Shown here in pieces: positions 4,872-55,162 of a stretch of 64,000 nucleotides of DNA (position 1 is its first letter; every line of letters starts with the position of its first letter). The stretch is from a virus (Duplodnaviria; Caudoviricetes): IMG/VR virus record IMGVR_UViG_3300042691_031247; one strand, 5' to 3'. The notes under the pieces were generated by a model that saw only the letters and a list, made by a program, of their open reading frames with translations, was not told the origin of the DNA and searched no databases. The position numbers and the translations under genes were made by a program.

Positions 4872-7800
4872 CTAGCCCTTCTCGTCACAAAACCAATCGA
4901 CTCCCAAACCCCTAGATTTCTCGGGTTTTAGGTTCTCTCCCCAGTGGAAAAACACGTCACGACTCATACCAAAGTGGTAAGGTTCGGCCACGTCGATTTT
5001 GGTGCCGTCGAGCCTGTGCGGCCAAAACGGAACACCGTCAATCATGCACGCCGGAATAACTTCTTTGTACAAACGCTCAGCGTGCTCTAGCGGCACAATT
5101 AACACAATCGCGTCGTGAATCTGCAGCGCGATTTTGTAATCAATATCCGAGTGTTCTTCGCGGTACTTGTAGAAGTTGTAAAGCGCGATAGACACGGCGT
5201 CAGCTACTCCACCTTGAATCGGGAAGTTCTGTGCCTGCCGCTCTTGCTCGCCACGTACGGCTCGGTCCTTCGTCGGCATGAACCGGCGAAACCGACCGTA
5301 CGGACCTACCAGCCACCCCGGATCTTGCGACCGCATACGGCATTCTGCAAGAAACGTCTTAGTACCGGGATAAGATTGGAAGTAGGCGTCGATCATCGCT
5401 TGGCACTGATCGGCTGTAACGTCGTGGCCTTCCTCTTTGCATTGACGCGCAAGAGCTTCTGAACCGCGGCCGTACGGAATACCGAAATTCACGTTCTTGG
5501 CTGCGACACGAAGACCCTTTACGCCAGCGTCCACCATACCTTGTTTTGTAGGCGTGACGCCGCTAAGCCGGAATGTCTTAACCGCCTGCTGGCTGTGGAT
5601 GTCGTAGTGGTCCGGGTGATCCTCTGGCAGAAGATTACGCCGGACGTGCTCAATCATATTTTTATCTTGACTCAACCACGCGAGGACCGCCAATTCCGCA
5701 CCAGTGAGGTCCGTTTCGATCCCGATGCAACCTTTGGGTACACGAAGGATTGAGCGGACGGGATGCTGGTATTTATCTTTTCCGAGGATACGCTTGTAGT
5801 CGTCTTCCCGCCGCGAACTAAGGTTTTGTAGCGGCGGACGACTGCTGCTTGCCCGACCTGTTTCCTTGGTCTGAAACATGTGAGTACGGACTTTACCGTC
5901 AGAGTGGACGCACCCAACAAGACCTTTTTCATACGTGTAATTACCGTTCTCATCGAGTTCGTATTCTCCGTCTTCTGTTTCAGCGGGTTTGCGCAAGACC
6001 GACTGCAGCACCTGACTAATGAATTTATAGTCACGGATTTTCGCTGCCGTCGAGTTCATGTGACCAAGAATGCCCAGACTCTCCTTGTCCGTACTGGGCG
6101 TGGCTGTCTCTGGGTTGATGCCGCGATACGACATTTCATTCCACAGCACAGGACGCTTACCGGTTGTCTTCACCGGGCGCAGGTCAAGCGTTTGCGCGTC
6201 TTCCGGGATTGGCGGTGAGTTCGTGTACCGGTCGGCAAAGTCGCGGCCGAAAAGCGCTATCGCCAATTGGGGCTGCGACTTTGGATTAAACGCCGGCCAC
6301 TGCAGCTCCTCGCGGATTTCAGCCAGCAGTCGTTCCTGCGTGTTCATAAACAACGTGGTCAGCTCATCCGCGCGATTGCGGTCGATTTCAAGGCCAGTCA
6401 TTTCCATCTCTAGAAACGCCAGCGATGAGTTGTGTGCTGTCCAGTACGGCAGCCAGCAGTCATGGCCTGTGCTGGACCGAGCGATGAGGCCGTCTTTGCC
6501 GTTGGTGCCGTAGAACCGCATCATGATTCGACGCGTGACGTCGACGTCATACGAGGCGTACGGGTGAAGAATATGCGCAGGGCACTCGCCGTAACCACCA
6601 ACCTCGCTCGCCTTCAATTTGTTATCAGAGCGGTACTTTTTCTTCCAGTGATCAAGTGGCTCCCAGTAAGTTGGCGCCGCTGTGAATCTCATGGAGCACT
6701 CGTCGAGACCGTACCGCGCGCACTCGTTAACGGCGTGGTACATGAGACTTGTATCCCAACCGCCGTGCGTGCGGTCGTCGGGATCTTCGGCGGGAGCGTA
6801 CTCCGGGCGTACATCCACGCCAAAATCAAAAAGCCATGGCAAGTCAGCACGGAAAAAGTGCCCACCCACACGGACGTTTCTTTCGGGCGTGCTTTTGAGC
6901 AGCCGCGTGAGCTGCCGGCGAGCTGCGTCCAGATTTGGCTGAAACGCTTCTGCGCCACCCTGATGCCGCAGAACAATCGTGCGCGCCCACTTGTCTTTAT
7001 TTGATATCTGAACCGTCCGCAGATACGCGCCTTCTTCCGTCGGATACTCGCCGTGCCACTCACAGTCGATCGCGATGATGTTGGCGTTCGGGTCAGGATC
7101 GCTAACCATTTCGTCCACAATTTCCGCCAACGCTGCTTCGGTGTACACGTCGGCATGATCAACGGCTTCCTCGTCTAAGATCTCATCGTGAATTAGGGCT
7201 TTAAATCGACGGATCTGTCCGACGAAATCTTCAGTCACTTCTGGCTTGCGCACCACAAATGCCGGGTGCATCACCGACAGCGCTTTCATCGTCCGGGGAT
7301 TGCCGTCTGTGTCTACGGACGAGACGTCGAGGATGCGGCCGGCGAGGCCGGTGATGGCGCCCGTCGTACGCATGACTGCTTTTGTCGCCTCGTTGCCGAG
7401 GCACAGAATAAACTCCGGCTGGACGATGCGAATTTCTTGCTCCAGCAGAATTGCGCAGTTTTTGATCCACGCGGCCGGGACAGCCGTAATTTCCATCGGC
7501 GGCGCAAACTTGCACGCAAACGTAACGTACCAGTCCTCGTACGCTTCGGGACTGATGCCGCACTCCTCAAAGATATCAGCCATCATGTTCATGGCTGGAC
7601 CGGCAGTCGCGTTCAAGCTCTCCATCTCGTAATAGCCGGGGAGCTTGCCGACGATCATCACCTTGGCTTTGCGCCACGGCCCGTACATCTCTACCGCCGC
7701 GCCCCGTTTCCCCCAGCGATGCCCGGGAAGAAACGGTACGGGAATAAGGTCTTTAGAGGACTTGTGCGAAATCGGCAGATGGAAGTCTGGCCGATACAGC

Positions 7801-8039
7801 GCGTTGCGGTAGAGATTCGTCAGGTGCGTACCTACAGGCACGGCCTTCTTTTTCTTGGCGCTCGCCTCGTCAATCTCGTCGCCCAACGCTACGGCGTGCG
7901 CGATAAAGTCTGGGCCGGCCGGCGGCATACCCGGTTCCGTAAGCGGAATGAACGGGTATGCCGCGGCCGTAAAATCTTCTGTGTTCGGGTCATACAGCGT
8001 CTGGGTTAGACGATGCGTGAGCGAAATACCCTGTGTCAT
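4872..8039 (-). CDS. polA: family A DNA polymerase with N-terminal uracil-DNA-glycosylase-like domain and 3'-5' exonuclease
   Basis: UDG-like GKLPG...CKFAPP...LCLGNEA...HPAF; Exo I DCE, Exo II RAD, Exo III YASYD; TGRASS; motif A DLTGAELAVLA; motif B RVAAKNVNFGIPYG; motif C IHDA. Confidence 0.95.
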   Translation of the reverse strand: MTQGISLTHRLTQTLYDPNTEDFTAAAYPFIPLTEPGMPPAGPDFIAHAVALGDEIDEASAKKKKAVPVGTHLTNLYRNALYRPDFHLPISHKSSKDLIPVPFLPGHRWGKRGAAVEMYGPWRKAKVMIVGKLPGYYEMESLNATAGPAMNMMADIFEECGISPEAYEDWYVTFACKFAPPMEITAVPAAWIKNCAILLEQEIRIVQPEFILCLGNEATKAVMRTTGAITGLAGRILDVSSVDTDGNPRTMKALSVMHPAFVVRKPEVTEDFVGQIRRFKALIHDEILDEEAVDHADVYTEAALAEIVDEMVSDPDPNANIIAIDCEWHGEYPTEEGAYLRTVQISNKDKWARTIVLRHQGGAEAFQPNLDAARRQLTRLLKSTPERNVRVGGHFFRADLPWLFDFGVDVRPEYAPAEDPDDRTHGGWDTSLMYHAVNECARYGLDECSMRFTAAPTYWEPLDHWKKKYRSDNKLKASEVGGYGECPAHILHPYASYDVDVTRRIMMRFYGTNGKDGLIARSSTGHDCWLPYWTAHNSSLAFLEMEMTGLEIDRNRADELTTLFMNTQERLLAEIREELQWPAFNPKSQPQLAIALFGRDFADRYTNSPPIPEDAQTLDLRPVKTTGKRPVLWNEMSYRGINPETATPSTDKESLGILGHMNSTAAKIRDYKFISQVLQSVLRKPAETEDGEYELDENGNYTYEKGLVGCVHSDGKVRTHMFQTKETGRASSSRPPLQNLSSRREDDYKRILGKDKYQHPVRSILRVPKGCIGIETDLTGAELAVLAWLSQDKNMIEHVRRNLLPEDHPDHYDIHSQQAVKTFRLSGVTPTKQGMVDAGVKGLRVAAKNVNFGIPYGRGSEALARQCKEEGHDVTADQCQAMIDAYFQSYPGTKTFLAECRMRSQDPGWLVGPYGRFRRFMPTKDRAVRGEQERQAQNFPIQGGVADAVSIALYNFYKYREEHSDIDYKIALQIHDAIVLIVPLEHAERLYKEVIPACMIDGVPFWPHRLDGTKIDVAEPYHFGMSRDVFFHWGENLKPEKSRGLGVDWFCDEKG

Positions 8040-8045
8040 AACGCC

Positions 8046-9116
8046 TCATAACAAAAACGAAAGATCAGCCGTCACGTCAACAGCGTCGGCGGCCGATGAC
8101 AACATCTCAAACAACTCCGGCCGCGAGTAATCAGCCGGGTCACGATCGTCCGGGAGAATAACCGGAACGACATTAACGTTTCTCTGGCAAAGAGCTGCGA
8201 CAACATGCTCAAGCTCGGTCTGCGCGTCGTGATCGAGGATGACGAACACGGGCTTGTTCGCCCATGTCGTCGCGATCGTGTTGCACTGCCACGCAGATAA
8301 CGTCTTACCAAAAATACAGACGCCTGCAACTCCAAGCCGCCACACGCTCGGTACGCCCTCGACCACTACGGCGGCTGGCTGTTCCGCCGCGTTATCGTAG
8401 TTGTAGAGCACCTGACTCTTGCGCATGCCGTTGTAGTACTTGACAGTGTTTCGGCCCTCTCCAACGACGCGGCCTTGCCAGCCAACTAACTGCCCATGAA
8501 AATGAACAGGAATATAAATACGCCCGTGCATAATCCGGTGTTTGTCCAGCCGCGGATTTACACACACGCCGATTTTGAACACATCGGCGAGTTCGCGGAT
8601 ATTCGTAAACCCGCGAGAAGCCAAGTACTCGACAGCCGGGTGATACTCCGGCAGCGAATCAATCGGCAGGATCTCTCCGGGCGGTTCAATCGTTTCGTGT
8701 ACCGTGTCGAGCGGTACTGACCTGATTGGCGTACGCGTCATGAATCGCCGGCCGGCGCCGAACACCATATCTTCAAACTGCTCCAGCCGGCCGGGCTTAT
8801 CAAGACAGTTTTCGTTGTAGCACACGACCAAATGCGTGTTTGCCCGACGACCATTGCGAATGTCTGATCCGTACCGATGATTCACCCACAGACGATTTCG
8901 CTGGTCACGACAAAACGGACAACACACGCAGTAATACTCACCCCAGCTGCCGCGATAAGTAGACTTGCCGCGGCGAAGGGGATCATCAAATTGTTCGACC
9001 TGCGCGGGCACACCTTCGTTTGCGATAGTTACATCGCCGAATTTGTGCGCGAGCAGGCCATACAGTACGGGATTCAGGGGATTTGAACTTGGCGTTTTTG
9101 AGACCGCCATTTTCAT
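8046..9116 (-). CDS. dnaG: DNA primase (Zn finger + TOPRIM)
   Basis: CCPFC...H..C zinc ribbon, IYIPVHFHGQLVGWQGR, VVVEG, LDHD, DPADY; SD AGGAG 5 nt before ATG at 9116. Confidence 0.88.
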   Translation of the reverse strand: MKMAVSKTPSSNPLNPVLYGLLAHKFGDVTIANEGVPAQVEQFDDPLRRGKSTYRGSWGEYYCVCCPFCRDQRNRLWVNHRYGSDIRNGRRANTHLVVCYNENCLDKPGRLEQFEDMVFGAGRRFMTRTPIRSVPLDTVHETIEPPGEILPIDSLPEYHPAVEYLASRGFTNIRELADVFKIGVCVNPRLDKHRIMHGRIYIPVHFHGQLVGWQGRVVGEGRNTVKYYNGMRKSQVLYNYDNAAEQPAAVVVEGVPSVWRLGVAGVCIFGKTLSAWQCNTIATTWANKPVFVILDHDAQTELEHVVAALCQRNVNVVPVILPDDRDPADYSRPELFEMLSSAADAVDVTADLSFLL

Positions 9117-9127
9117 ACTGACTCCTC

Positions 9128-19022: not shown

Positions 19023-20597
19023 TTAAACGTCGCCGCCAACAACGCCGCCAAACTGCGTAATAATAGCGTGTGCGTCATCAACCGAAATATCAAAAAACTC
19101 GTTGTTTTGCCGTTTATCGGCATACTCTCTGTGTAAACGTGTTTCGAGCGCTACGCAGTCGCCCGTAACGATATACCCAACTAGTTTTAATCCACCCGGC
19201 ACAAAAGTCTGACTTTCGCGTTGTCGCGCTTCTACAGCGCGCCGTGTGCGCCCAATTTTAATGTAACCGCGCGTCGGCTCCTGCAAAAAGTAGACGTGCT
19301 CGTCCGTTTTTACGGGCGCTGATTCGTTCAGCGTCTCCTCGCCTAAAAACCCGGTCGGCACACGCGACAGATGTTTCGGTACAACAACGGCGCCCGCGCG
19401 CAGAATAAGCTTTGGCTCTTTTCTGCCGACGCCGGTCCAGTACAGCGCCATGTGCGGATTTCTCCAATGCGGCGAGACAAGGCTTTGCGCGTTTAACTTC
19501 TTGCCAATAGAAAATCCGCGCCCCTGAATGTTTGCCGCTTTATCCTCCAGCCACTTCTTTGCCGCCTCGTCAGTTTCACGGTCGTAACGTTCCTGATGCT
19601 TTGCCAGCACAATCGGCGTGATCAGGTCGCTACCGCAGTGCAACATCGAGGCGAACGACGCGAGTTTGAAAACAAACTGATTGACCTCTAGTGATTGGTA
19701 CCCCATGTACAGCGGCAGCCGCTGCCCGCGGCAATCGTCTGCTGCGTGCTGATGTTTAATCGTCTCTTCAATTGTTTTCAAACGAACGACTGAGTTCTGT
19801 GACACAGGAAACATGTTCGGACCGCGCGTAAACTGATACGAATCGCCCGCAGCAAGCTGCAAATCATCGGGCGCCTGCATCGCCTGATATTTAGTGGCTT
19901 CTAGCTGAAACGCCACAATGCTTTCGTGATCGTTGCCGGCAGCAAAGCTCGGTTCGTATGGGCGGTCGTTTGATTCAGGAATGTCTTCGTACACACCGCC
20001 GAGCAAATAAACCTCGTGGTGATGATGCTCGCCCGGAAGCGGCTTGGTGTACTCGACAAGCGCGCTGCCAATTACGCCAGCAAAAACGTCGACGTTTTTG
20101 TTAGTAAAATATTGCGTGTTCTCCGGCACAACGTGCGGCTGCCCCACCGTAATCAGAACAGATTTGATTCCATACGGTTCGTGCCCCTCGGCAAATCGGA
20201 ACAGCATTGTGCGCTGCGGGAAGTTCAAAAACGCCGCAGACACGTCGAGCTTTGTATTACGAATCAGCTGCTCGACAATCGGGTAAACGTTATAGAACGG
20301 ACGCTCCGTGTTGTACCACTCGTACTCGGATAGAACGCTGATGTGCGTCCGAACAATATCGCCAACAACTTTGTCTGTCCACTCGCCGGGAACGACGTTG
20401 CGGTCAAAAGGTTGCGTCGCCATCTGCTGTAAAAATTCTACATTCGACTGCTTCTTAAGCGCCTGCAACGCGCGGTCAACCGCGTTTAAATAAGCGTCAC
20501 GCGATAAGCCAATTATTTCAGACTCGCCAGCTGCTAGTTGATGTTCAAAGTCAGTTATTGATCGTTGTTTTGCATTTACAAAATCGTGAAAACGCAT
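19023..20597 (-). CDS. large protein with C-terminal T5orf172/MUG113 (GIY-YIG-like) domain
   Basis: VYFLQ...YIKIGRT...ARQRE...LETRLH...NEFF at C-terminus; PHWRNPH...WTG.GR motif upstream. Confidence 0.75.
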   Translation of the reverse strand: MRFHDFVNAKQRSITDFEHQLAAGESEIIGLSRDAYLNAVDRALQALKKQSNVEFLQQMATQPFDRNVVPGEWTDKVVGDIVRTHISVLSEYEWYNTERPFYNVYPIVEQLIRNTKLDVSAAFLNFPQRTMLFRFAEGHEPYGIKSVLITVGQPHVVPENTQYFTNKNVDVFAGVIGSALVEYTKPLPGEHHHHEVYLLGGVYEDIPESNDRPYEPSFAAGNDHESIVAFQLEATKYQAMQAPDDLQLAAGDSYQFTRGPNMFPVSQNSVVRLKTIEETIKHQHAADDCRGQRLPLYMGYQSLEVNQFVFKLASFASMLHCGSDLITPIVLAKHQERYDRETDEAAKKWLEDKAANIQGRGFSIGKKLNAQSLVSPHWRNPHMALYWTGVGRKEPKLILRAGAVVVPKHLSRVPTGFLGEETLNESAPVKTDEHVYFLQEPTRGYIKIGRTRRAVEARQRESQTFVPGGLKLVGYIVTGDCVALETRLHREYADKRQNNEFFDISVDDAHAIITQFGGVVGGDV

Positions 20598-21163: not shown

Positions 21164-22324
21164 TTAATAAATAACGGTCAATGAAACAGCGCAATCGGTG
21201 AGCGGGAACAGGTACACACCGCGCGCAGAAAATTGCCTTGGGCGTTCCAGCCGCATAACAACGCGACCAGAGTGCAAAAGTGTCGCTACAACATAGGGCC
21301 CGGTTGACGAAACCGAAGCGTCGAGCGAGATAACATAATCTGTACCGGGAACAGGCACCTGCACAGACGCGCCGTGCGGCCCTGTAGCGCCAGTGATTCC
21401 CAGCCTAGCGGCTTCTTTGCCGCCGTCAATAACGCGCTCCAGCGACGCCACATCTTCACGCGGCACAAAAGCCCAATGTACGGGCTTTGTAAACTCACCA
21501 AGGTATCCGGGTCGCTCAATTTGCTTGCGCTGCTCTTCGCTGATGACTGCCGCGATCTCAAGATGCCGCGCGGCGATGTTTATGTACGCCAGCAGCGCCG
21601 GAGAAATAGCCGCGTAGTCTTCAGCCGTGTTGGTGCCGGTGATTGCCGGCGAGTTGCGCGGCCTGACCGGAAAGAACTCGCCTGTCTCCAAAAAGACAAA
21701 ATGTGTGTTGGTGCCGTTGTCGAACGAGATGCCACGATACGCCGGGCCTAGCTCGCCACTGGGCAGCTTGTCACGAAAGTTGACAAGGCTAGCCGACAAC
21801 GCAGATGCCATTGTGTCGGTGAACTGGGCCGGAGCGAACACCCGAGACAGCATGCGCTCGTTGTAAATCTCAGGCGCAACCGGGTGCACAATTAGCGGAT
21901 TTTTTGGAGACTCCGCGACCTCTGCGATTACGGCATCAAAGATATCTTGAGCCGGCACGTCCGCATCAGCCAGCCCGTTCTCGATCAGATCGGCGAACAG
22001 AACGAGCGCCGCGCTAACGATTGCCGGCGCTGTTTGCTCCGTGGCGCCGTATTGTTTTGCGACTGTGATACCGCGCGAAAGAGCCGCCTGAGTAATTGAA
22101 AAAGGTACTGCGCCCCAGTTGATGTTGCCCGAAACTTGAGCAAGCTGCCAAAGCGCTTTAAAGAACGCCGGATCTTTCTTCGGCGTGCAGGACTGGCGAA
22201 ACAATTCGAGCGTGCAGGCCAGTAGCCGCAACTGCCCAAGGTCGTCAGTTGTGCGAAATTTACTTAGAAACTCCCGAACATGAACTGATGGTTTTGGTGA
22301 TTTGTCCACTGAATACTCCGTCAC
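21164..22324 (-). CDS. hypothetical protein
   Basis: 386-aa ORF, no recognisable motif. Confidence 0.75.
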   Translation of the reverse strand: MTEYSVDKSPKPSVHVREFLSKFRTTDDLGQLRLLACTLELFRQSCTPKKDPAFFKALWQLAQVSGNINWGAVPFSITQAALSRGITVAKQYGATEQTAPAIVSAALVLFADLIENGLADADVPAQDIFDAVIAEVAESPKNPLIVHPVAPEIYNERMLSRVFAPAQFTDTMASALSASLVNFRDKLPSGELGPAYRGISFDNGTNTHFVFLETGEFFPVRPRNSPAITGTNTAEDYAAISPALLAYINIAARHLEIAAVISEEQRKQIERPGYLGEFTKPVHWAFVPREDVASLERVIDGGKEAARLGITGATGPHGASVQVPVPGTDYVISLDASVSSTGPYVVATLLHSGRVVMRLERPRQFSARGVYLFPLTDCAVSLTVIY

Positions 22325-23477
22325 AAGCGTTTAAAAGTGTCATCACGTTCGCTTTAAAAGTGCCTAAAATGTTGTGCGCTGTGCCGTTATGGCTATTCAC
22401 ATATGACGCAAAAGAAGGTTGAACGTGACTGTCGATAAGGACAGCGTGAAAAGTCGGGGCGCGCTCGCTGTCTGAAAGCGCGCACCGAGCCTGAAGAAAC
22501 AACTGCAGGCCGCGCATAGCGTCGCCGATAAACAACACTACGCCACATTGTGTCTGACATAGCTGACGTACCTGCTCCGCAAACACGAGAAAGTCTACGT
22601 ACGTCGCAGCACCAAACGCGGCGCCGATCTCTGCTCCCGGACCATCAGGATAGATGTGCCCGGCCATCTCGCCCAGCTCGACGTGCACGGTGGCGGGAAC
22701 ACCCAGCGTGTAAGCAGAGTGCAGCAAGCTGCGCTCCGTTGTCGCCCGCGGAGAATACGCCCAGCGCCCGACGGCCTCGCCGTAACCAAGACCCTGATTG
22801 GCGGCTAGCCGCGCAACGTAGTTCAAGTCGTGCGTCATGCCGCGCTCTGCCAAGCGTACATCGGCCACCAGCCCAGCGCCGGTGGTGGCAACAGCCGTGA
22901 CATACTTCTTGCGCAGCAGCTCAACTGCGGCGATACCCGCGCCAGAATGAATCGCCGGCGCCGAAATAAATAACATTACCGGCTGGTCTTCAACGCGAGC
23001 TGTGTGAATCAGGCTTGCGGCGTTGACGTGAACTTCTTTGATTAAACACAGCGCATCGGCAATCTCTGGCGGCATGGCGTCACACGGCGGTGTCGCCGCT
23101 CGAAGGGTATCGAAAACAGGGAACGCGCTGTTTAAGCGTTGGGGTAATACAAGCGCGCCGGGATGTTCAGTGGTCGGCGTGCGCAGCATAGGTCCGCTGC
23201 CCCACAAGAGCCAGTCAGCATTGACATGCGTGTGACTGAGGATCTGCGCCAGCAGTTGCGCAGACACCGCGTACTGCCGCTTGAATACTTTGCCAAGATG
23301 CGTTGATTCTAGTTCGATGGCGCGCGCAAACGCCGGCACATTGTTATTAAAAAGAGTCGCGCACAGATACTCCAACCTCTGCAGCCATGGCTGGTCCGCG
23401 TGCGCGATCTTGCGCCTGCGCAATTCGCGCCTCTGCCGCTGCCGATCGCTCAGGTGACTGCGTTTTGGTCTTGGCAT
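22260..23477 (-). CDS. Cro/CI-type HTH fused to deoxyhypusine-synthase-like domain
   Basis: FARAIEL...VNADWLLWGSGPM (phage repressor HTH); TTGAGLVAD, GLGYGEAVG, SAYTLGVPATVHVELG, ATYVDFLVFAE match bacterial DHS-like proteins. Confidence 0.65.
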   Translation of the reverse strand: MPRPKRSHLSDRQRQRRELRRRKIAHADQPWLQRLEYLCATLFNNNVPAFARAIELESTHLGKVFKRQYAVSAQLLAQILSHTHVNADWLLWGSGPMLRTPTTEHPGALVLPQRLNSAFPVFDTLRAATPPCDAMPPEIADALCLIKEVHVNAASLIHTARVEDQPVMLFISAPAIHSGAGIAAVELLRKKYVTAVATTGAGLVADVRLAERGMTHDLNYVARLAANQGLGYGEAVGRWAYSPRATTERSLLHSAYTLGVPATVHVELGEMAGHIYPDGPGAEIGAAFGAATYVDFLVFAEQVRQLCQTQCGVVLFIGDAMRGLQLFLQARCALSDSERAPTFHAVLIDSHVQPSFASYVNSHNGTAHNILGTFKANVMTLLNACDGVFSGQITKTISSCSGVSK

Positions 23478-24468
23478 CGTCGCCCTTTCGTTTCTGCGAG
23501 TCTACAAGTCCGCGACCTACAGCGCGCAGAATACCGGTTCCGGCCAGTAGTCGCATACCGTGTACGGCACGCAAATAAGCAGCGACAAGCTCATCGTAGC
23601 CGTCCAGCAGCGGCATTGGATATTTGTTGAACTCGCCGAACAGATAGAAAAACTCTGTATCAGGCTGCTCGTAACACTCGGCGACTTTGAGTGACTTGAT
23701 ATACGTTACACGGCTCCCGCGAACACGAACACACGGCAGCTTTGTTTTTGGGGCGTGTAAGAAAAACTGCCGGGCCTCGATCAGCCAGCCATTGTCCTGT
23801 GGAACAACAGCCAACCGCCACATCGAGCCCATCGTTTTACGCCCGAGCTGCTTTGTCTGCTTGTTGTATGCGTTGCGCTCGCGCTGCAGCTCGCCCCACA
23901 CTAAGCGCTCGTACTGCTTTACCACGTCCAGCCCACAGCCAACGCGCGGGTCCCATTCCGGCGCGGCGATAAATCGAGTGGCAACGCGGCAAGTGACAAT
24001 AAGCTTAGTGTCTTTATTGTGACGTCCCAGCGCCCGTAATTTGTTTTTAACGTCACGATACTGCGCCGTACTGATACGCGCGTAGCAAAACGGACAGATG
24101 TGTGCCCAGTTACACGGCCGCAACGCCACATCTTTTTTCCAACGAAAAAACATATACGTCGGACGGCAGAACAGACACCGCTGAAACGACAGCCGAAACT
24201 TTTTGAAATCAAAATCAGCGTCGTCAGGATGTGCCAGCCGCGCCACTGGCAACCACAGCGCGCGAATTGCTAACTCTTTCAGTTTGAGGGCCCAGCGCTG
24301 CCGCACCGTATTTGTCCGGCTGATTACGGCGTCGTGTGTCTTGGCGCTAGTCAAGCCCAGTACAAAGTGCTGCGCAAACACATGCGCCATACGGACGCTG
24401 ACGCGATTAACGCGCCACGTTTTTAATCGGTAGCGACGGACAAACTCCGCAAAGTCAATAAGCGCCAT
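23347..24468 (-). CDS. rolling-circle Rep (Rep_1-like) derivative lacking the HUH motif
   Basis: C...C..HICPFC zinc region, motif I-like LIVTC, motif III-like KYP, terminal A..G.RLL...G.L pattern; HUH position reads IEARQ. Confidence 0.5.
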   Translation of the reverse strand: MALIDFAEFVRRYRLKTWRVNRVSVRMAHVFAQHFVLGLTSAKTHDAVISRTNTVRQRWALKLKELAIRALWLPVARLAHPDDADFDFKKFRLSFQRCLFCRPTYMFFRWKKDVALRPCNWAHICPFCYARISTAQYRDVKNKLRALGRHNKDTKLIVTCRVATRFIAAPEWDPRVGCGLDVVKQYERLVWGELQRERNAYNKQTKQLGRKTMGSMWRLAVVPQDNGWLIEARQFFLHAPKTKLPCVRVRGSRVTYIKSLKVAECYEQPDTEFFYLFGEFNKYPMPLLDGYDELVAAYLRAVHGMRLLAGTGILRAVGRGLVDSQKRKGDDAKTKTQSPERSAAAEARIAQAQDRARGPAMAAEVGVSVRDSF

Positions 24469-46647: not shown

Positions 46648-46660
46648 TAAACATCCTTTG

Positions 46661-47624: not shown

Positions 47625-49550
47625 TTGTGGTTCATGGATAAACCTGATCAAACAATTACTGAAGCGATTGACATGCCGTCCGCCGGCGTGCAATCACTTC
47701 TACAAGAATTAATCTCAATTGATGTGACGGATGTACATTCTGTTCACGCGCGAGCTGGTGTGTTGCAACAGCTCGCCGGCAGACATGCGTTTCCGTCGCT
47801 CGAACCTATTTTGCCGTTGGTTCTGAATCTTAATGGACGCCCGTACAGCATTCAGAATCATATGCCTTTTTCCCCACTTTTCCGGCTACTGACACCGAAA
47901 AATCAAGTGTGGTGCACGGGCCGTCAGGTATCAAAATCGACCAGCCTAGCAGCGCACGGAGTTGTAGTTGCCAACTCTCTCCCGTTTTTCAAAACGTTAT
48001 TCATCACACCGTTGTACGAACAGATACGCCGGTTTTCGAATAACTATGTGCGTCCGTTTATCGATCAGTCTCCTGTGAAGTCGCAATGGAGCGGCACGAC
48101 GACCGAGAATTCAGTTCTGCAAAGATCGTTTAAGAACAACTCAATGATGTTGTTCAGCTTTGCGCTTTTAGATTCGGATCGTATACGTGGTGTTTCTGCA
48201 GACCGCGTGTGTATCGACGAAGTTCAGGACATGGATCCTGATCACGTGCCGATCATTCAAGAAACGATGTCTTACTCCAAATGGGGAACTAGTTATTACA
48301 CAGGAACTCCGAAGACGCTAGATAACTTAATTTACGGATTGTATAAACGATCATCACAGGCCGAATGGTTTATACCGTGTCATTCCTGCAAGCACTGGAG
48401 CATCCCTTCGCTTGAGTATGACTTGGACAAAATGATCGGCCCGTACAGCCCGCATATCAGCGAGAATTATCCGGGCACCGTCTGCGCTAAATGTCAGAAA
48501 CCGATCAGCCCAAGGCATGGTCGGTGGGTGCATAGATATCCCGAACGCCGCTGGCAATTTGCCGGGTACCACGTACCACAGATGATACTGCCGCTTCATT
48601 TCTCCGACCCTGAAAAGTGGTCAACTCTATTGTTGAAGAGAGAAGGGTTTGGGAACATGACCCAAGCCCAGTTCTACAACGAAGTAATGGGAGAAAGCGT
48701 TGATACCGGTCAGAAGCTCATCAGCGAAACTGATTTGAAGGCTGCGTGCGTGCTAGACTGGGAAAACAAGAAAGAACCAGACCCTAAGTGCTTTGCAAAT
48801 CTCTCGAACTACAAACATCGCATCCTTGCGGTCGACTGGGGCGGCGGCGGAGAAGCAGGTATTAGTTTCACCGTGCTTGCTGTGCTGGGGTTCCGCCCGG
48901 ATGGGACCATCGACACGCTTTGGGCCAAGCGCCTGCTTATTGGCGGCGATCATTTGGCCGAAGCTGTTGAATGTATGCGCTGGTCTAACTTGTTTAATTG
49001 CGATTTTGTCGCTCACGATTACACGGGCGCCGGCACGGTCCGCGAAACGGTCATGGTGCAGGCAGGGTTTAATCTAGAGCGCGTCTTGGCGATGCGGCTT
49101 GTTCGTTCCGCATCGCAAGATTTGATGGTGTTCAAACCACCGACAGAGATCAATCATCGAGCACACTATAGCCTCGACAAAACGCGGTCGTTGCTGTACA
49201 CGTGTCAGGCGATCAAGCTGAAGCAAGTCCGTTTCTTCCAGTACGACTGGTCGTCACAGGATTCGCCGGGCTTGGTGTCGGACTTTCTTGCGTTGGTAGA
49301 AAGTAAAGCCGAGTCTAGACTAGGCGGCGATATTTATACCATTACAAGGAACACGTTGTTGACTGACGACTTCGCGCAAGCTGTTAACCTAGGCTGCGCC
49401 GCTCTTTGGCACGTGAATAACGCGTGGCCTAATTTCGCGGAGATCGCTGGCGTAGCGCGGTTAAGCGAGCGTGTTGTCAAAGCCGAGACGCCGATGGATG
49501 ACGACTGGGCGGATGACTCCATCGGGCGAAGCTACTTTGGCGGTTACTAG
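47625..49550 (+). CDS. terL: terminase large subunit, lambda GpA-like
   Basis: GRQVSKST Walker A, RGVSAD..CIDEVQD Walker B, GTP coupling motif, CxxC...CxxC, NEVMGE, AVDWG and DDFAQA nuclease acids; start may be 47673. Confidence 0.88.
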   Translation: MWFMDKPDQTITEAIDMPSAGVQSLLQELISIDVTDVHSVHARAGVLQQLAGRHAFPSLEPILPLVLNLNGRPYSIQNHMPFSPLFRLLTPKNQVWCTGRQVSKSTSLAAHGVVVANSLPFFKTLFITPLYEQIRRFSNNYVRPFIDQSPVKSQWSGTTTENSVLQRSFKNNSMMLFSFALLDSDRIRGVSADRVCIDEVQDMDPDHVPIIQETMSYSKWGTSYYTGTPKTLDNLIYGLYKRSSQAEWFIPCHSCKHWSIPSLEYDLDKMIGPYSPHISENYPGTVCAKCQKPISPRHGRWVHRYPERRWQFAGYHVPQMILPLHFSDPEKWSTLLLKREGFGNMTQAQFYNEVMGESVDTGQKLISETDLKAACVLDWENKKEPDPKCFANLSNYKHRILAVDWGGGGEAGISFTVLAVLGFRPDGTIDTLWAKRLLIGGDHLAEAVECMRWSNLFNCDFVAHDYTGAGTVRETVMVQAGFNLERVLAMRLVRSASQDLMVFKPPTEINHRAHYSLDKTRSLLYTCQAIKLKQVRFFQYDWSSQDSPGLVSDFLALVESKAESRLGGDIYTITRNTLLTDDFAQAVNLGCAALWHVNNAWPNFAEIAGVARLSERVVKAETPMDDDWADDSIGRSYFGGY

Positions 49551-51168
49551 AAAAGCCGCCAGCAATAGTCTTCGATAAATTTTTGCATCGGGCGGTGATC
49601 GCGAATCTTAGAGTTTTCGATAACGTCGATTACTTCGCGAGCCGCGTCAGCTAACGCCGCAGCAGCCTCCGTGCAATCCATAGACGAATCGTACAACTCC
49701 CAACCGGCGCCTGATCGCGGGATCGACGGCTCTTTGCCGTCAAACGCGTCAGCAATCAACCGCTGAAATACGCCGTCTGGTTCCGTGTCGAGCGCGCCAA
49801 ACTTGCGATACTTCGTTTGCATGTGCTCAAACCTACGAACCGCTTCGCGAAGTTTCTCCACCGTCAGCGTCATTGGAGTCGTTAATAGAGTTGACAAGCT
49901 CCATTCCCTTTTCGGTTATTGAGAAATTGAAATCGTTTTTATCGCAGTCGTATTCTGCGTCTAGAAAACCGCGCTGCACGCCAACACGCATAATGTTCGA
50001 TATGACGCGCGCACCGAGCGCACGAAACAGTCGAAGCATTTTTGTCTTGTACTCTTCGAACGAGTTGGCGCCGATGCCATACGCGCCGTCAGCCTGCACG
50101 TCAGACAGTTCACGAACAATTTGTTCGACCTCCCAGACCTCCAAAAACTGTCGCTGATATTCGAGCGAGCATTCACTTTCAGTCGGTTCTTCGTCCTGCA
50201 GCTTGGCGATAAAACCGGCGAACATCACTAGTACGTGATCGCGGAGATCTTCAATCGACCCGCAAATACGCCGAGCGGGCTGTTCTTCGTTTTCGTCTTC
50301 GTAGTCTTCGAACATAACTACCTCAAGCCGTCTCTGCGGCAAGACGAGCCGTGGCGAGCGCGGCGTCGTAATTGCCACGCGCAATCATACGCGCGTGAGC
50401 GGCGTCACGGCACTGCCCCAGATAATCGGAGTAGTCGCTGTCGGTGTTGACGAGCGCTTCCGCCGAACTGAAGCTGTGCGGCTTGTTGGTCAGCGGGTTG
50501 TCGCCGCTTTTCATGATCCGCTCGACCGCAGCCATCTTGACAGAGATGCGGTTGTCTTCCAGCTCTGCCTCGCTGCGCACAGCGTCGGCAAGAACGGCGG
50601 CGGCGTGGGTAATGTTATCAGCAAAATTCTTGGCCATGATCACTCCTCAATTTTTTGCCAACCATCTATGGCGCGGCGAACAGTCAATATGTCGTCAAGC
50701 GCCCGGTCTAGCATGTGTACAGCCGATTCGAGATCGTCAGCGTCGGCTAATTCAAAGATAATAAACGCAAACAAGGTATCGCCGCATTCTCGAATACTCT
50801 GTTTGCCCACACGATTGATGTAATCGTGAAATGTTTCGTCGTTATTTGGCGGATCGACTGCGAGTAGGTCTGATCCCGGATATGAATCGTAAATTGCTTT
50901 CGGAACCAGTTGGCTATTCGTCATTTCTCCAGTTTTGTTTTTCTTGGCGCGTTGGCTGCCGTTTGGGATATTTCTCGGGATGACAAACCTGACAACGTGC
51001 GCGCGTGCAACCACAACTGCGCAACGTTTTACGATACCGCCCGGCTTCGCTCGCGGTTTGCGCCGCGTTTTCAACCCAACTACCAAACTCCAGCCACCCG
51101 GCATTAATTTGTCGGTGCTGCTTTACTCGGCGTTCGATGATGTGCTTTTCGCTGTGGTAACGTTTCAT
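49547..51168 (-). other. five small hypothetical genes (49547-49897, 49833-50315, 50323-50643, 50640-50924, 50914-51168)
   Basis: Head-to-tail minus ORFs; last has a C.C....C..C motif. Confidence 0.6.
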
Positions 51169-51170
51169 TG

Positions 51171-51623
51171 TTATCTGCCGTCTGTTTCACAGTAGATGAC
51201 GATTTTGCAGCCGCACTGCTCTGCTAGTTTGACAACGTCGGGCGCGTACACCGCCACGATTTGGTCGCGTTTGACCGCGCCAGCGGTGATCAGGGACTGC
51301 AACCCAAGTTTAGCTATGCCGCGACGTCTATACGCAGGGTCGACGAAACACTCGACGGTTTGTGCGGTAACAGGCCGGCCCTTGAATTTTTCCGGCCACG
51401 GGCGCGAACCGACCCAGCCGGCTAGCGTCTCGTCTACCCACACCAGCGCTATGGCCATTTCTGGATACGGCTGCTCGTGGTTGACGTGCAGATAACGCTT
51501 GCTGAGTTCTTTTTGAATTGAACTGTCGCTGCCGGAATCAGGCCACGACAACCGCGTCAGGATGGCCGTCACATCGACCAGTCCGAGCTGGTTGATGTCT
51601 TTGATTTTGATATTAATATTCAT
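51171..51623 (-). CDS. GNAT-family acetyltransferase
   Basis: Motif A VECFVDPAYRRRGIAK.GL. Confidence 0.8.
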   Translation of the reverse strand: MNINIKIKDINQLGLVDVTAILTRLSWPDSGSDSSIQKELSKRYLHVNHEQPYPEMAIALVWVDETLAGWVGSRPWPEKFKGRPVTAQTVECFVDPAYRRRGIAKLGLQSLITAGAVKRDQIVAVYAPDVVKLAEQCGCKIVIYCETDGR

Positions 51624-51658
51624 AGCTGGTCCTCCGTGACCAACTATGAAGTATACAA

Positions 51659-51731
51659 AGCCGGCGGTCGGATTCGAACCGACGACAGGCAGTTTACAAA
51701 ACTGCTACTCTACCAACTGAGTTACGCCGGC
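51659..51731 (-). tRNA. tRNA-Thr(TGT)
   Basis: Cloverleaf; GCAGT-TTTGTAA-ACTGC anticodon arm; GGTTCGAATCC; CCA not encoded. Confidence 0.95.
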
Positions 51732-51736
51732 AAGCG

Positions 51737-52204
51737 TTAAACAGGTTCAGTGATTAAACCAGTTGGCCAGTAGTATGGCATGTCGATCGGCTCCTGCCAA
51801 CCAAACCGTGAGTAGTAGCGGAAATCTTTGCGGAGAAGATTGCTGCGATGACTGGCGTGAAATTGCTCGTCGCCAACCCACGGAGGATACACGTTGCGCT
51901 CAATGGTGTTGCGCAACGTGGTATAGCTGCCCATGAACTGCGGGCAGAGCGTGTCATTAAACCCGCGGCGTATCCACTCGCGGCACACGACTATGGCGTA
52001 TACAGTTAGCGCTGTTTCATATCCCGCCCACATACGGACGGCAGGGTGATTGCGCCAGCTACTTGTTCCGGGCTCGTGTTGGCCAACCGGAACGCCAAGG
52101 CAGAGTAAGATCTGCTTACATTCAACCCTTTGTTTGCCTAACCTTTTGTTATCAAGGCAGGCAGCCGAGTGTTTGAATCTCGGCAGGGGCAAGAATGTTT
52201 GCAT
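51737..52204 (-). CDS. pyrimidine-dimer DNA glycosylase superfamily protein (MSMEG_6728-like)
   Basis: MQTFLP...SA..LD.KRLGKQRVE..QIL...HPAVRMWAGY...HASHRSNLLRKD..YY. Confidence 0.85.
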   Translation of the reverse strand: MQTFLPLPRFKHSAACLDNKRLGKQRVECKQILLCLGVPVGQHEPGTSSWRNHPAVRMWAGYETALTVYAIVVCREWIRRGFNDTLCPQFMGSYTTLRNTIERNVYPPWVGDEQFHASHRSNLLRKDFRYYSRFGWQEPIDMPYYWPTGLITEPV

Positions 52205-52208
52205 TTAA

Positions 52209-52493
52209 TCAGTCGTCAAACTCGTCGTCAAAGTCTTCTTCGTATGCGGGGTCTTCATCCTCTTCGTCCTTGTATTCTTCGTCCCAGTCTTCATCTTCTT
52301 CGTCGACCCACTCCTCTTCGTCATCGTCTTCGTCGTCGTCATCGTCGTCGGTAAATACGTAGTTCGGCTTGGGTAACTGAATGTCACTGTCATCGTCTTC
52401 GTCGTCTTCGTCGTCATCGACAAACTGCCACTCCTCTTCGATGAAATCATCGTCGAGGCCGTCGTCATGACGGGCTGTGTTTTCGTTCGGCAT
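52209..52493 (-). CDS. hyper-acidic small protein
   Basis: 94 aa from MPNENT, more than half D/E, interspersed with W/F/Y. Confidence 0.7.
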   Translation of the reverse strand: MPNENTARHDDGLDDDFIEEEWQFVDDDEDDEDDDSDIQLPKPNYVFTDDDDDDEDDDEEEWVDEEDEDWDEEYKDEEDEDPAYEEDFDDEFDD

Positions 52494-52528
52494 GTCGCGA
52501 AACAACGGAGATTCAAAGTAGCGCATAG

Positions 52529-55162
52529 TTATCCAGTTTCCCGGGCAAGGTCCGCAGCAGGTAACAAATACTGATCGCACCAGTTGCTATCGACAAGAAT
52601 GCCCGGTAGGTTGCGCACAGCTTCCTCTCCACCGAAAACTCCGCGACGCGTCAATAGTTTAACAAGCCAAAGCCAGTTTGGGGGTAGTGCTTTTTTATCT
52701 GCAAAATAGCGGTTGACCGCCCGCTGGTTTAACCACCAGTGCGCCTTCTTACGCACGATGTAATTATTTGGCTGCCCGACTTTTCTGGGCCGGGGTAAAA
52801 CTGCCAGCGCGCCTGTCTGTACGGCTGTCGTTAATTCCGTAAAAAACGCTATATCGGCTTCGTTTTGCGTAATTAAATGCGCACGGGCATAGTCCAGTTG
52901 AAAAGCCGCGCCGTATGTTTCTTGCAGCCACGTGTGCATGTCCGCCAGAACGGCCGCCGTCGTGGACTGGTCGGTCAGGCTGATCCGCATCCGCTGACGC
53001 AGCGCGCGCTGGATATACGCCGGTAAGATATATGTCAGCGGCGTAAAATCTGTGTTTGTGTTGGCGCTGCCGCTAATTACCTGCCAGTCGTACATGGGCG
53101 CCACGTTCGCTGCCGTGGCGGCTAAGCGCATGAGTATGGGGCGGTTGTGGCACCGCGGGATCGTCAGGCTTAAGCTCGACGCATCAAACACGCTGGCGAC
53201 TGTTGTTGGCCACGCCAATGAGTCGGTTCGTGCAGACACCGCCGCGCCGGCATTGCCGCGGTTCAAGATATCAATACGCAGATGCTGGCACCCGAGCGTC
53301 GCCGCAATTTTTTGTACTATTTCAAAGTCGTCGCCGGCAAACCCTGTAGCCGTCGGATCTCGCCGAAAGACAGGGGCAATAAGATCGGCAATGACGGCCG
53401 CGACAACTGTCCACGTGAACGCGTTCTCCGGGCTTGGCGTCAGGAACTGCCGTATAGCTGGCGGCGCGACGGCGACCGGTTCAGGAAATATGGCGTGTTT
53501 ATTTTTTTCGCTCGGCTGGTTCGGCGCGGATGGTGTACCGTCAGCAGCCAGTTCGTAGTTTGCAAAGCGAAACACGCTGGCTCGATCATCCCAACCCAGC
53601 CTGTTTGATATGCACACCAGTTCTGGTTTGCTGAGGCTGATCGCAATCAGATGGCTGCGCCCGTTCCACCGGCTGTCGTAGAGCATCACTTTTTTGTGTG
53701 CTGCGACAAGGCCCGCGGCGTAAGCCAGTAGACCGACACGTTCTATTTTGAACGCGCTGTCTGCAAAACTGATTTCTTCGCCGCGGAGATGGATGGTGCC
53801 TATGTATGTTTTTTCGCCGTCATCGGCTTGGGTGATTTTATTGATAACAATGTTTGCGTCACATATAGGCTGATTTGTCACGCTCCACCAACCGTCGGAT
53901 CGCGGCACGACGGTGCGCTGCCACGGAAGGACTATGGCCGGGGTGATGTTTTTCGACGTTTTAACATGCGTCAGTACGCGGTCTGAAAAGCCGGGAGAAA
54001 AGTTCTTGTCAATCTTAGTCAGGAACGGCACCAGCTTGTCTGGCGGAATAGTGAGCCGCGTCGCAAACGAGTGCGCCGCGATTTCGTTCATTTGCTCCAT
54101 CGCGTTACCCAAGCGGCTCTGCCACGTCTCCGCGTTCTTTCGGATTGAGACGAGCCGGCTCATTGCGTCTGTCGCGAACCGGTTTTTCAGTCGTTGGTTC
54201 TGCGCAACGATCGCCACGTAGCCGCGTGCGTTAGCGGCGCGGCTGATTAGCTCTGGCGAGACGACGTGACTTTGAAAGATCCGCGGCACGGGTGTAAACG
54301 CACACCAGCTCCCGCCCCAGCTATTTGCTTCGACGCCGGTGTAACTCGCCATCACAGGCAATAACGACAACCCGTGGCGCAGCATTTCACATTGCATGCT
54401 TAGCGCCCACATCGGATCATCAACTACAAACTGCGTGCTTTTGAGCGTTTCTGTGGCGGGCAAAAGCGCGGCACGCAGCAAAAAGTAACCGGCTTCCGGG
54501 CGGTCGCGCCGGTACTGGTTCAAAGCGATAAAGTTTTGCTTGGCCGTAAACTGCTCATCGTACTGCACGACCAGAAAGCCTGTGATGCGCCCGGGGAGGT
54601 CGTAGTACGGGAACACAAGGCTCGCGCCGTTTTCGCGCACCGGGGTGATCGGCGGGCGGCGCACGAATTTCTGCAGCGCGTCTATTTGTTCCTTGTACGC
54701 GACACCGACTAACCCAGCGGCGTTAATCTCTGGATATACACCAAGCTCTCGGAGGCGGCAGGCGATGACGTCGTCGTGGTGCCCCCAAATCTGCGCCTCA
54801 GCGGCAAACCAGAACTGCTCGAATTTTTCGAAGCGTTCGATCGTGCGGGCGTATTCGGCAACGGCATTATCTTTTTCGGCCGGGTTTATGGCGTTTAATT
54901 CGATAAAACGGGCAATCGCCACGTCCGGGCTTGTATTCCATAACGCCGCGCTAAACGTTATGATATCTCCATGGGCAGAGCACGAGTTACAGTGCAGCCA
55001 AATACCGTTAGTGCTTGCGTCGTCGAACAGGTGTAGCGTATTTTTTTGACATAGCGGACAACTAACGACGGCCGGGAAAACCAACTGGTCCGGTGCAATG
55101 CCCAACGCCGACAGGGCAATCGCGTGGTGTTGGCGGCCAATTAAACAGGTAGGAAATCCCAT
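52529..55162 (-). CDS. degenerate primase-helicase-like protein (CHC2-type Zn finger, TOPRIM-like, DUF927-like)
   Basis: CPLC...CNSC..HGDII; LVFPYYDLPG.I.GF; FVVDD at the TOPRIM EG position; no intact DxD or Walker A. Confidence 0.5.
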   Translation of the reverse strand: MGFPTCLIGRQHHAIALSALGIAPDQLVFPAVVSCPLCQKNTLHLFDDASTNGIWLHCNSCSAHGDIITFSAALWNTSPDVAIARFIELNAINPAEKDNAVAEYARTIERFEKFEQFWFAAEAQIWGHHDDVIACRLRELGVYPEINAAGLVGVAYKEQIDALQKFVRRPPITPVRENGASLVFPYYDLPGRITGFLVVQYDEQFTAKQNFIALNQYRRDRPEAGYFLLRAALLPATETLKSTQFVVDDPMWALSMQCEMLRHGLSLLPVMASYTGVEANSWGGSWCAFTPVPRIFQSHVVSPELISRAANARGYVAIVAQNQRLKNRFATDAMSRLVSIRKNAETWQSRLGNAMEQMNEIAAHSFATRLTIPPDKLVPFLTKIDKNFSPGFSDRVLTHVKTSKNITPAIVLPWQRTVVPRSDGWWSVTNQPICDANIVINKITQADDGEKTYIGTIHLRGEEISFADSAFKIERVGLLAYAAGLVAAHKKVMLYDSRWNGRSHLIAISLSKPELVCISNRLGWDDRASVFRFANYELAADGTPSAPNQPSEKNKHAIFPEPVAVAPPAIRQFLTPSPENAFTWTVVAAVIADLIAPVFRRDPTATGFAGDDFEIVQKIAATLGCQHLRIDILNRGNAGAAVSARTDSLAWPTTVASVFDASSLSLTIPRCHNRPILMRLAATAANVAPMYDWQVISGSANTNTDFTPLTYILPAYIQRALRQRMRISLTDQSTTAAVLADMHTWLQETYGAAFQLDYARAHLITQNEADIAFFTELTTAVQTGALAVLPRPRKVGQPNNYIVRKKAHWWLNQRAVNRYFADKKALPPNWLWLVKLLTRRGVFGGEEAVRNLPGILVDSNWCDQYLLPAADLARETG

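Follow-up and report, generated by a model that had tools for sequence, protein, structure and literature searches.

The window analysed here, a stretch of 64,000 nucleotides, is part of the genome of an uncultured freshwater (lake) phage of about 198 kb, and a megablast search with 20 kb against GenBank phages returned no match. A preliminary description had proposed that five of its genes keep an enzyme fold while having lost key catalytic residues, that this reflects a genome-wide pattern, and that the genes are full-length and uninterrupted and therefore maintained as binding or scaffold proteins rather than decaying. All five reading frames are indeed present and uninterrupted at the coordinates below. 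Four of them, all but PolA, are without a match in Pfam and PHROGs. They are given here with their domains and with the canonical primase and helicase of the same window, used as a control.

[quoted passage not shown]
7239..7685, minus strand: UDG-like domain within PolA, residues 119-267 (aligned with structures of UdgX and family-4 UDG)
8046..10837, minus strand: canonical DnaG-type primase and DnaB-type helicase, motifs intact, control (Pfam DNAG_N, DnaB_C)
13554..14495, minus strand: conserved protein of 313 aa, encoded between the genes for the SF2 helicase and SbcC (homologue alignment)
22260..23477, minus strand: Cro/CI-type HTH joined to a DHS-like / LOR-SDH-like domain (PDB profile matches)
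23347..24468, minus strand: Rep_1-like rolling-circle initiator look-alike (VIA, Atlas, BFVD, motif comparison)
52529..55162, minus strand: primase-helicase look-alike, 877 aa (AF2 model, Foldseek, VIA, column statistics)
54893-55162, minus strand: Zn ribbon of the look-alike, residues 1-90
53957-54838, minus strand: DnaG RNA-polymerase-domain fold of the look-alike, residues 109-402
52541-53938, minus strand: Cch/SaPI-Rep helicase fold of the look-alike, residues 409-874

All five genes are under purifying selection, with pairwise dN/dS (NG86) against 3-5 relatives (4-6 sequences per gene, the window included) ranging from 0.035 to 0.124, values that are approximate since dS, at 0.9-1.5, is near saturation. 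The 13554 gene has the lowest value (0.035), followed by PolA (0.038), the primase-helicase look-alike (0.083), the Rep-like protein (0.091) and the HTH-DHS protein (0.124), and the questioned domains by themselves give 0.03-0.13 (NG86). Neighbouring bona fide genes are comparable (DnaG 0.055, orf3429 0.063). The comparison across related phages thus detects no relaxed selection, and the view that these genes are selected and not decaying is borne out. The control enzymes carry their expected motifs: in DnaG the TOPRIM residue E258, D300-x-D302 and the D-P-x-D cluster are all present, as is the Walker A motif GPYGGGKT at 239 in DnaB.

PolA is well recognized by profiles (Pfam DNA_pol_A 6e-47, UDG 7e-15, exonuclease 4e-5; phrog_17 9e-98) and carries the Exo I motif D-C-E at 325-327, motif A (T-D-L-T-G-A-E-L, 776-783) and motif B (844-852), while its polymerase motif C reads H-D-A. 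Its nearest GenBank matches, at about 24% identity, are polymerases of SPO1-like and Vibrio phages, not of N4. The UDG-like domain belongs to PF03167 by fold, scoring 55.7 bits against a cut-off of 24.3 (E 7e-15), and its PDB matches are UdgX and type-4 UDG (E about 2e-6). Catalytic residues, here and in the other genes, were mapped by sequence alignment and secondary-structure register, a procedure in which a shifted catalytic residue is possible. On this mapping, UDG motif A, G-E-x-P-G (GEQPG), has become G-K132-L-P-G, with Lys132 at the position of the catalytic Glu, the uracil-contacting Asn of T-N is replaced in T-F174, and motif B, HPS, reads H258-P-A and keeps its His. The K132/F174/H258 state is the same in 5/5 PolA orthologues, and the domain has a dN/dS of 0.064. 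Furthermore, the N-terminal CxxC is missing from the window PolA and is present in five of the six other phage UDG-PolAs aligned. The alignments thus confirm the proposed loss of the canonical catalytic set. Without the motif-A Glu, the uracil-reading Asn and, apparently, half of the Fe-S cysteines, the domain most likely supports the replicative polymerase structurally or by holding DNA, as has been proposed for N4-like PolAs.

The Rep-like protein was likewise expected to be an inactivated enzyme, and for it the expectation holds in part. Its AF2 model (pLDDT 73) finds the SIRV1 ORF119 Rep (2x3g) as best VIA match (Z 6.2), its nearest ESM Atlas clusters are all Rep_1, REP_ORF2-G2P or Zn_Tnp_IS91 (TM 0.47-0.56 over 221-244 residues), and BFVD returns four unnamed viral proteins at E <= 4e-4, followed by microvirus replication initiators at E 0.07-0.08; with Z at 6.2 and TM about 0.5, these fold matches are moderate. 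Foldseek against the PDB gave no significant match, the protein lies below the sequence thresholds of Pfam and of the PDB sequence-profile search, and hhalign of the family with pC194 and pUB110 aligned just a 20-column C-terminal motif (E 0.049). Landmarks of the protein are a Zn knuckle (C119, C125, C128), motif I (156-162), the HUH slot (230-241) and Tyr283. There are 27 homologues, and in the comparison of 21 family members, down to 37% identity, none has H-x-H at the HUH slot. Tyr283, which aligns with the K-Y of pC194 and pUB110, is invariant, as are Arg233, Glu231 and the Zn knuckle; Glu279, the equivalent of pC194 E210, is not conserved. The Rep fold and the absence of H-x-H are therefore as first described, but with its tyrosine kept the protein is only half disarmed. 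It would be a Rep_1-like initiator that lost the HUH metal site and retained the Zn knuckle and the invariant Tyr, acting either as a non-nicking DNA binder or as a nickase with unorthodox chemistry.

For the HTH-DHS protein the HTH is clear (PDB profile matches to 4ich and the 434 repressor), but disarming is not demonstrable, the DHS-like matches being weak and the pocket strongly conserved. Translation probably begins close to residue 35 (about 23375); the called homologue has 371 aa. DHS-like folds make up six of the eight PDB profile matches of the C-terminal domain, each weak (E 0.003-0.29) and aligned over some 65 residues, namely the AgrE C-domain (0.003), Sll1336 (0.014), 3c2q (0.057) and DHS (0.2-0.29). 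There are 56 homologues, and D206, E234, H274 and D295 plus five Gly are invariant in the family. A conserved Lys, which the catalytic site of deoxyhypusine synthase would call for, is lacking, as Lys occupies no column in over 19 of 34 sequences, and tblastn against GenBank phages found no match. On these weakly supporting matches, the protein is probably a ligand-sensing regulator, in which the HTH is joined to a DHS-like and probably ligand-binding sensor domain.

The claim is not supported for the 13554 protein, which had been read as an IS110 transposase with altered RuvC and Ser sites. Its family is strongly conserved, with 326 homologues, a mean column identity of 70% and ten acidic residues that never vary, and neither Pfam and PHROG with the protein, nor the PF02371 HMM in four relatives, nor a sequence-profile search of the PDB with the family gave a match. 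Transposase_20 occurs in just 13-37% of the members of its language-model neighbours (Atlas). Against seven real IS110 transposases, hhalign returned E-values of 0.089 and 0.086 at a probability below 1%, the alignment being colinear, and the comparison was no better with further IMG/VR homologues of as little as 49% identity. In this non-significant alignment, the IS110 Ser slot (after G-L-x-P and before Gly) is H/Y/N/S among orthologues, with a conserved Ser207 two residues on. Since the IS110 fold is not established, loss of its catalytic sites cannot be judged; a relation to IS110 transposases is possible but unproven, and the protein may be described as a highly conserved member of the recombination module.

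The primase-helicase look-alike bears out the preliminary description: it combines two confirmed folds with family-wide absence of the catalytic motifs. The AF2 model (pLDDT 87) matches 8tch (7e-10), 5dgk (6e-9) and 2au3 (4e-7) in Foldseek. In VIA, residues 1-402 match 2au3 at Z 14.7 and the E. coli core at Z 14.4, and the helicase part matches 8tch at Z 14.6 (402 aligned) and 5dgk at Z 13.6. Sequence-based searches are nearly silent: the PDB sequence-profile search with the family and tblastn against GenBank phages found nothing, and Pfam on 30 family members gave weak Zn_ribbon_DnaG matches only. The family is nevertheless large, with at least 777 clusters at 50% identity. Cys35, 38, 58 and 61 are conserved in every family representative that has the N-terminus. 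At the TOPRIM Glu slot (248), by comparison, residues vary (D in 36, T in 20, N in 17 and P in 15 of 139 representatives), the DxD slot (297-299) reads W/G/P, and not one of the 139 has Glu and DxD together, although Asp249, adjoining the Glu position, is conserved in 115. The helicase part shows no conserved Lys or acid at 600-662, where Walker A and B were sought; GK[ST] is found in the P-loop slot of 0/139 representatives, and this slot differs even between orthologues of 81-85% identity. One relative (L004) has a frameshift in the gene, which could be an assembly error or a real loss. Next to the look-alike lies a gene for a four-fold alpha-CTD protein that lacks a polymerase core.

By fold, the protein is a complete DnaG primase (Zn ribbon and RNA-polymerase domain) fused to a Cch/SaPI-Rep-type helicase, and all but one of the TOPRIM metal-binding acids and the whole P-loop have disappeared throughout this very large family. 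Its role is probably non-catalytic, to bind DNA or to organise the replisome alongside the intact DnaG and DnaB of the phage. Tentatively, and with less confidence than we would need to favour it, this may be an undescribed family in which a whole primase-helicase was turned non-catalytic while its template-reading Zn ribbon was kept; it would then recognise origins or forks and organise or load the separate DnaG/DnaB replisome of the phage, or else serve as a decoy directed at replication factors of the host or of satellites.

Several explanations other than ancient loss within separate families have to be considered. That the fold assignments are artefacts of pattern-matching by eye, with nothing disarmed at all, would agree with the lack of a Pfam match in four of the five genes, with the failure of the IS110 link in statistical tests and with a DHS link built on individually weak matches. 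It is highly improbable, however, as the UDG is significant in Pfam and the PDB, the Rep_1-like fold emerges from three structure libraries (VIA, Atlas and BFVD) and structure search confirms the primase-helicase fold at Z 14-15; for UDG-PolA, the Rep-like protein and the look-alike an artefact is refuted. We also regard it as rather unlikely that some of the proteins are still enzymes. The Rep-like protein would then nick via Tyr283, with Arg233 and Glu231 replacing the HUH-bound metal, in keeping with the invariance of these residues and of the Zn knuckle; yet no HUH-family enzyme is known to us to function when both the His pair and any equivalent metal site are missing, and Glu279 is not conserved. 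Similarly, the DHS-like domain might be an enzyme of its own kind, given invariant D206, E234, H274 and D295, against which stands the absence of a conserved Lys, and the 13554 protein an active nuclease or recombinase, as its ten invariant acidic residues, its Ser207 and the lowest dN/dS of the set would allow. None of this applies to the look-alike, in which both sites are erased.

Finally, the phage lineage might systematically turn enzymes into binding or scaffold proteins, as an adaptive strategy shared across the genome. Three to four cases within one 64-kb window, all under purifying selection, and the alpha-CTD protein without polymerase core adjoining the look-alike would speak for such a strategy, but it is improbable: the losses are far older than this genome and lie in separate families with different distributions, the canonical enzymes of the window are intact, one of the five folds is unproven (13554) and one protein is sensor-like rather than a dead enzyme (HTH-DHS). 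Moreover, N4-like phages, which are not among the closest PolA matches, also have an inactive UDG-PolA (PMC10201439). The genome-wide pattern of the preliminary description is thus not supported, each loss being old and common to a whole family or clade, in a window with intact canonical replication enzymes. Losses shared by whole families or clades, together with these enzymes, point to five independent histories and not to a trend of this phage genome, a statement based on the age of each loss rather than on a comparison of rates across phages. We therefore consider it probable that the window holds five unrelated proteins, three of them with real folds that lack the canonical catalytic set through ancient, family-wide losses, and that no disarming trend is specific to the genome. 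The folds (those of the 13554 and 22260 genes excepted), the motif states and the selection are established, and the functions of all five proteins are what we infer from them. Binding or scaffold roles are plausible overall, but they are questionable for the Rep-like protein, which keeps its Tyr, for the HTH-DHS protein with its conserved pocket and for the 13554 protein with its ten invariant acidic residues.

Pseudoenzymes are well known in cells and, to our knowledge, little catalogued in phages. An inactive UDG-PolA has already been published, and the dead primase-helicase family is the most novel element of the window: doubly inactivated, large, conserved and unannotated (no Pfam, PHROG or GenBank phage match). 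Insight into its function might bring to light a new accessory step in how large phages replicate, and the Rep_1-like protein, with Tyr and without HUH, offers a natural test of whether HUH chemistry is replaceable. For annotation, the fold-based labels "primase", "helicase", "Rep" and "UDG" would mislead on the function of these genes.

Known systems resemble these proteins to different degrees. In N4-like PolA (cluster 17 of Czernecki et al. 2023; PMC10201439), the UDG is inactive, with a suggested role in processivity or structure. The window PolA likewise has a UDG domain that is probably inactive, but is longer (1055 aa, with an additional 118-aa N-terminus) and keeps the motif-B His. The active UDG-PolAs of SP15-like and SPO1-like phages, which excise dU with E53 and H178 as catalytic residues, have the same UDG-exo-pol architecture; they keep Glu and His, the Glu of the SPO1-like Q-E-N-P being the catalytic residue so that these domains count as intact (PMC13697223), whereas the window PolA has Lys132 for Glu and Phe174 for Asn. 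With the Rep_1 initiators (pC194 RepA, pUB110 Rep; PF01446) the Rep-like protein has a colinear Zn knuckle C-x(4-5)-C-P-x-C, motif I, Tyr motif (K/R-Y-P) and C-terminal R-L-x-x-G-x-G in common, but it lacks H-x-H, is hydrophobic at the equivalent of pC194 E142 and is encoded in a tailed dsDNA phage of ~198 kb. The HTH-DHS protein shares with deoxyhypusine synthase and the LOR/SDH-like C-domain of AgrE/ArgZ (6lrh, 3c2q, 8put) a nucleotide-binding core segment that closes with a conserved Asp (T-T-G-A-G-x-x-A-D against T-T-G-G-x-x-x-H-D); it differs in its fusion to a Cro/CI HTH, in having no conserved Lys and in a similarity confined to ~65 residues. Metazoan TWINKLE, a primase-helicase of the T7 gp4 kind, has an active helicase, while its primase domain is inactive and its Zn finger lost; its structures 7t8b and 7t8c match the look-alike at Z 10.4-10.5 (VIA). 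Both fuse a DnaG/T7-type primase fold without primase catalytic residues to a helicase fold, a ring helicase in TWINKLE, but in the phage protein the Cys4 Zn ribbon is still there, TOPRIM acids and P-loop are both missing, and the helicase part is of Cch/SaPI-Rep rather than RecA/DnaB type. Residues 409-874 superpose on the SaPIbov1 Rep and SCCmec Cch helicases (8tch, 5dgk; DUF927 type) over 320-402 residues at Z 13.6-14.6, and whereas those helicases are active, origin-binding and ATP-driven, the phage look-alike retains their fold with neither a conserved Walker A nor a conserved Walker B.

The window, whose genes lie mostly on the minus strand, derives from an uncultured freshwater tailed phage, and no close relative was found for it among GenBank phages. 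Several IMG/VR relatives of 144-205 kb share 70-99% protein identity with it for the five genes proposed to keep enzyme folds without catalytic residues. Codon-aligned orthologues from IMG/VR relatives were compared pairwise by the Nei-Gojobori method, and the resulting ratios are approximate, since dS lies at 0.9-1.5 in the orthologue pairs.

Pairwise dN/dS (approximate) of the five genes and of three neighbours
4872-8039, minus strand, UDG-PolA (PolA): 0.038
13554-14495, minus strand, 13554 gene: 0.035
22260-23477, minus strand, HTH-DHS: 0.124
23347-24468, minus strand, Rep-like: 0.091
52529-55162, minus strand, primase-helicase look-alike: 0.083
DnaG, neighbour: 0.055
orf3429, neighbour: 0.063
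orf21164, neighbour: 0.104

None of the five genes is drifting. Their values (0.035-0.124, against 0.055-0.104 in the neighbours) bear out the absence of decay assumed in the preliminary description, which had viewed the five as disarmed enzymes selected as binding or scaffold proteins. By domain, the ratio is 0.064 in the UDG-like part of PolA versus 0.026-0.029 in the exo and pol parts, and 0.048 in the TOPRIM-like and 0.125 in the helicase-like part of the look-alike. In one relative (L004, IMGVR_UViG_3300022752_000023, positions 3001-5630), the look-alike orthologue is split by a frameshift into frames of 320 and 573 aa, which may be a fault of the assembly or a genuine loss of the gene.

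The look-alike matched nothing in Pfam, PHROG or PDB sequence searches, and an exhaustive HMMER search gathered 777 mostly full-length cluster representatives (E <= 1e-3). AlphaFold2, given 30 diverse members, produced a model of pLDDT 87 in which residues 1-402 superpose on the Zn-binding and RNA-polymerase domains of Aquifex DnaG (Z 14.7, 357 aligned) and residues 109-397 on the core of E. coli DnaG (Z 14.4). For residues 409-874, the structures that superpose are the Rep helicase of SaPIbov1 (Z 14.6, 402 aligned) and SCCmec Cch (Z 13.6). Conserved across 139 representatives are all four Zn cysteines and a P-F-x-D-L-P-G-R motif; the position following TOPRIM strand 1 varies (D36, T20, N17, P15), with conservation only at the adjacent Asp249 (115/139). 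The DxD slot holds W, G or P, a third acidic cluster is absent, GK[ST] occupies the P-loop slot in 0/139, and neither a conserved Lys nor a Walker B acid follows it; the P-loop slot differs even between orthologues that are 81-85% identical. The true primase of the phage (8046-9131) has E258, D300-x-D302 and the D-P-x-D cluster, and the Walker A of its DnaB is normal. As the TOPRIM Glu/DxD and the P-loop are missing family-wide from DnaG and Cch/SaPI-Rep folds that are present, the gene is indeed disarmed: it encodes a primase-helicase inactivated in both halves, an ancient state fixed within a large family. Since the Zn ribbon and the N-terminal RPD subdomain are retained, the protein may recognise template or DNA, and its Cch/SaPI-Rep-like half hints at ring or origin-binding behaviour. 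A literature search found no published description of such a family.

For the Rep-like protein, the loss is half shown. None of its 27 homologues carries Pfam domains, and Foldseek found no significant PDB match for its AF2 model (pLDDT 73). An exhaustive VIA search placed on top the SIRV1 ORF119 protein (Z 6.2, 110/116 residues), an HUH-superfamily Rep. ESM-Atlas shape searches returned only Rep_1, REP_ORF2-G2P and Zn_Tnp_IS91 clusters (TM 0.47-0.56 over 221-244 residues), and BFVD gave four significant unnamed viral matches (E <= 4e-4), the only named relatives being microvirus replication initiators lower in the list (E 0.07-0.08). The Zn knuckle (C119, C125-P-x-C128), motif I (156-162), the G-S hairpin and a C-terminal R-L-x-x-G-x-G align with pC194 RepA and pUB110 Rep, as does the Tyr motif (G-E-F-N-K-Y283-P versus E-x-A-K-Y). 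The His pair of the HUH strand (230-241) is absent from all 21 family members compared and the equivalent of pC194 E142 is hydrophobic, but Tyr283 never varies, unlike Glu279; the metal site is thus lost and the nucleophile kept.

This gene overlaps HTH-DHS by 130 nt (23347-23477), with relaxed constraint in both frames (dN/dS about 0.9 in the Rep-like tail and 0.37 in the first 34 HTH codons). The called HTH-DHS homologue begins near residue 35; its true start probably lies near 23375, and the Rep-like tail is probably poorly constrained or disordered. Behind a Cro/CI-type HTH, one region of the C-domain profile matches the AgrE/ArgZ C-domain (E 0.003), Sll1336 (0.014), 3c2q (0.057) and, more weakly, two archaeal DHS (0.2-0.29), a group comprising 6/8 PDB matches, which makes a DHS-like fold reasonable but weak. 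A deoxyhypusine synthase is ruled out because no Lys is conserved in the family alignment. Preservation of a ligand pocket is indicated by a T-T-G-A-G-x-x-A-D segment and by nine residues that never vary (D206, E234, H274, D295 and five Gly), and the protein is most economically read as a ligand-sensing regulator.

The 13554 gene, described earlier as IS110-like, belongs to an extremely conserved family (326 homologues), and its language-model neighbours carry Transposase_20 in a minority of their members. Against seven authentic IS110 transposases from plasmids, hhalign recovered the local match that would be expected, I-P-x-x-x-G...G-L-T-P, and the two aligned colinearly over the full length when stringency was low. 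The E-values were only 0.089/0.086 and the probability <1%, so the gene is at most a possible relative of IS110 transposases. The gene lies in a replication and recombination module (2-18 kb) with RecA-like, UDG-PolA, DnaG-type primase, DnaB-type helicase, SF2 helicase, SbcC and SbcD genes. Other features are:

13055-13552, minus strand, 165-aa ORF closely flanked by the SF2 helicase and 13554 genes
19023-20597, minus strand, 524-aa protein whose C-terminal domain is T5orf172/MUG113, bordering the recombination module
51171-51623, minus strand, GNAT acetyltransferase, downstream of the look-alike beside the glycosylase homologue
51737-52204, minus strand, pyrimidine-dimer DNA glycosylase homologue (Pfam Pyr_excise, E 3e-19), immediately downstream of the look-alike
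56283-57410, minus strand, 375-aa protein carrying RNA polymerase alpha C-terminal domains in a tandem array of four (Pfam RNA_pol_A_CTD, E 1e-46 over 4 stretches), directly upstream of the look-alike on the same strand
62887-63789, minus strand, 300-aa protein containing triple-helix repeats of the collagen type (Pfam Collagen, E 6e-36)

Of the five genes, three are real cases, while for the HTH-DHS gene a sensor domain is the better description. A genome-wide pattern of disarming is not supported: each loss is common to its whole family or clade, the families differ in spread, and the housekeeping enzymes of the window are intact. Judged by the age and spread of the losses rather than by loss rates, this speaks for five separate events of ancient date rather than for a strategy at the level of the genome.

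PolA combines a UDG domain (Pfam, E 7e-15) with exo and pol domains. Aligned to UdgX and family-4 UDG structures, its motif A reads G-K132-L-P-G in place of G-E-Q-P-G, the T-N position T-F174, and motif B H258-P-A in place of H-P-S. The UDG domain is thus disarmed as proposed, with Glu and Asn replaced and H258 kept, and these sites are identical in 5/5 orthologues. Absent, too, is the N-terminal CxxC, an Fe-S cluster motif found in 5/6 other aligned UDG-PolAs. The polymerase looks active from its exo I and motifs A and B, despite a motif C (residues 973-977; window 5109-5123) of Q-I-H-D-A rather than the usual H-D-E, with Ala in place of the second carboxylate. Active UDG-PolAs use E53 and H178 (Missoury et al., 2026; PMC13697223). 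N4-like UDG-PolAs, for which a processivity role has been proposed, have lost UDG catalytic residues (Czernecki et al., 2023; PMC10201439), as has the window PolA, whose loss is therefore real but of a known kind.
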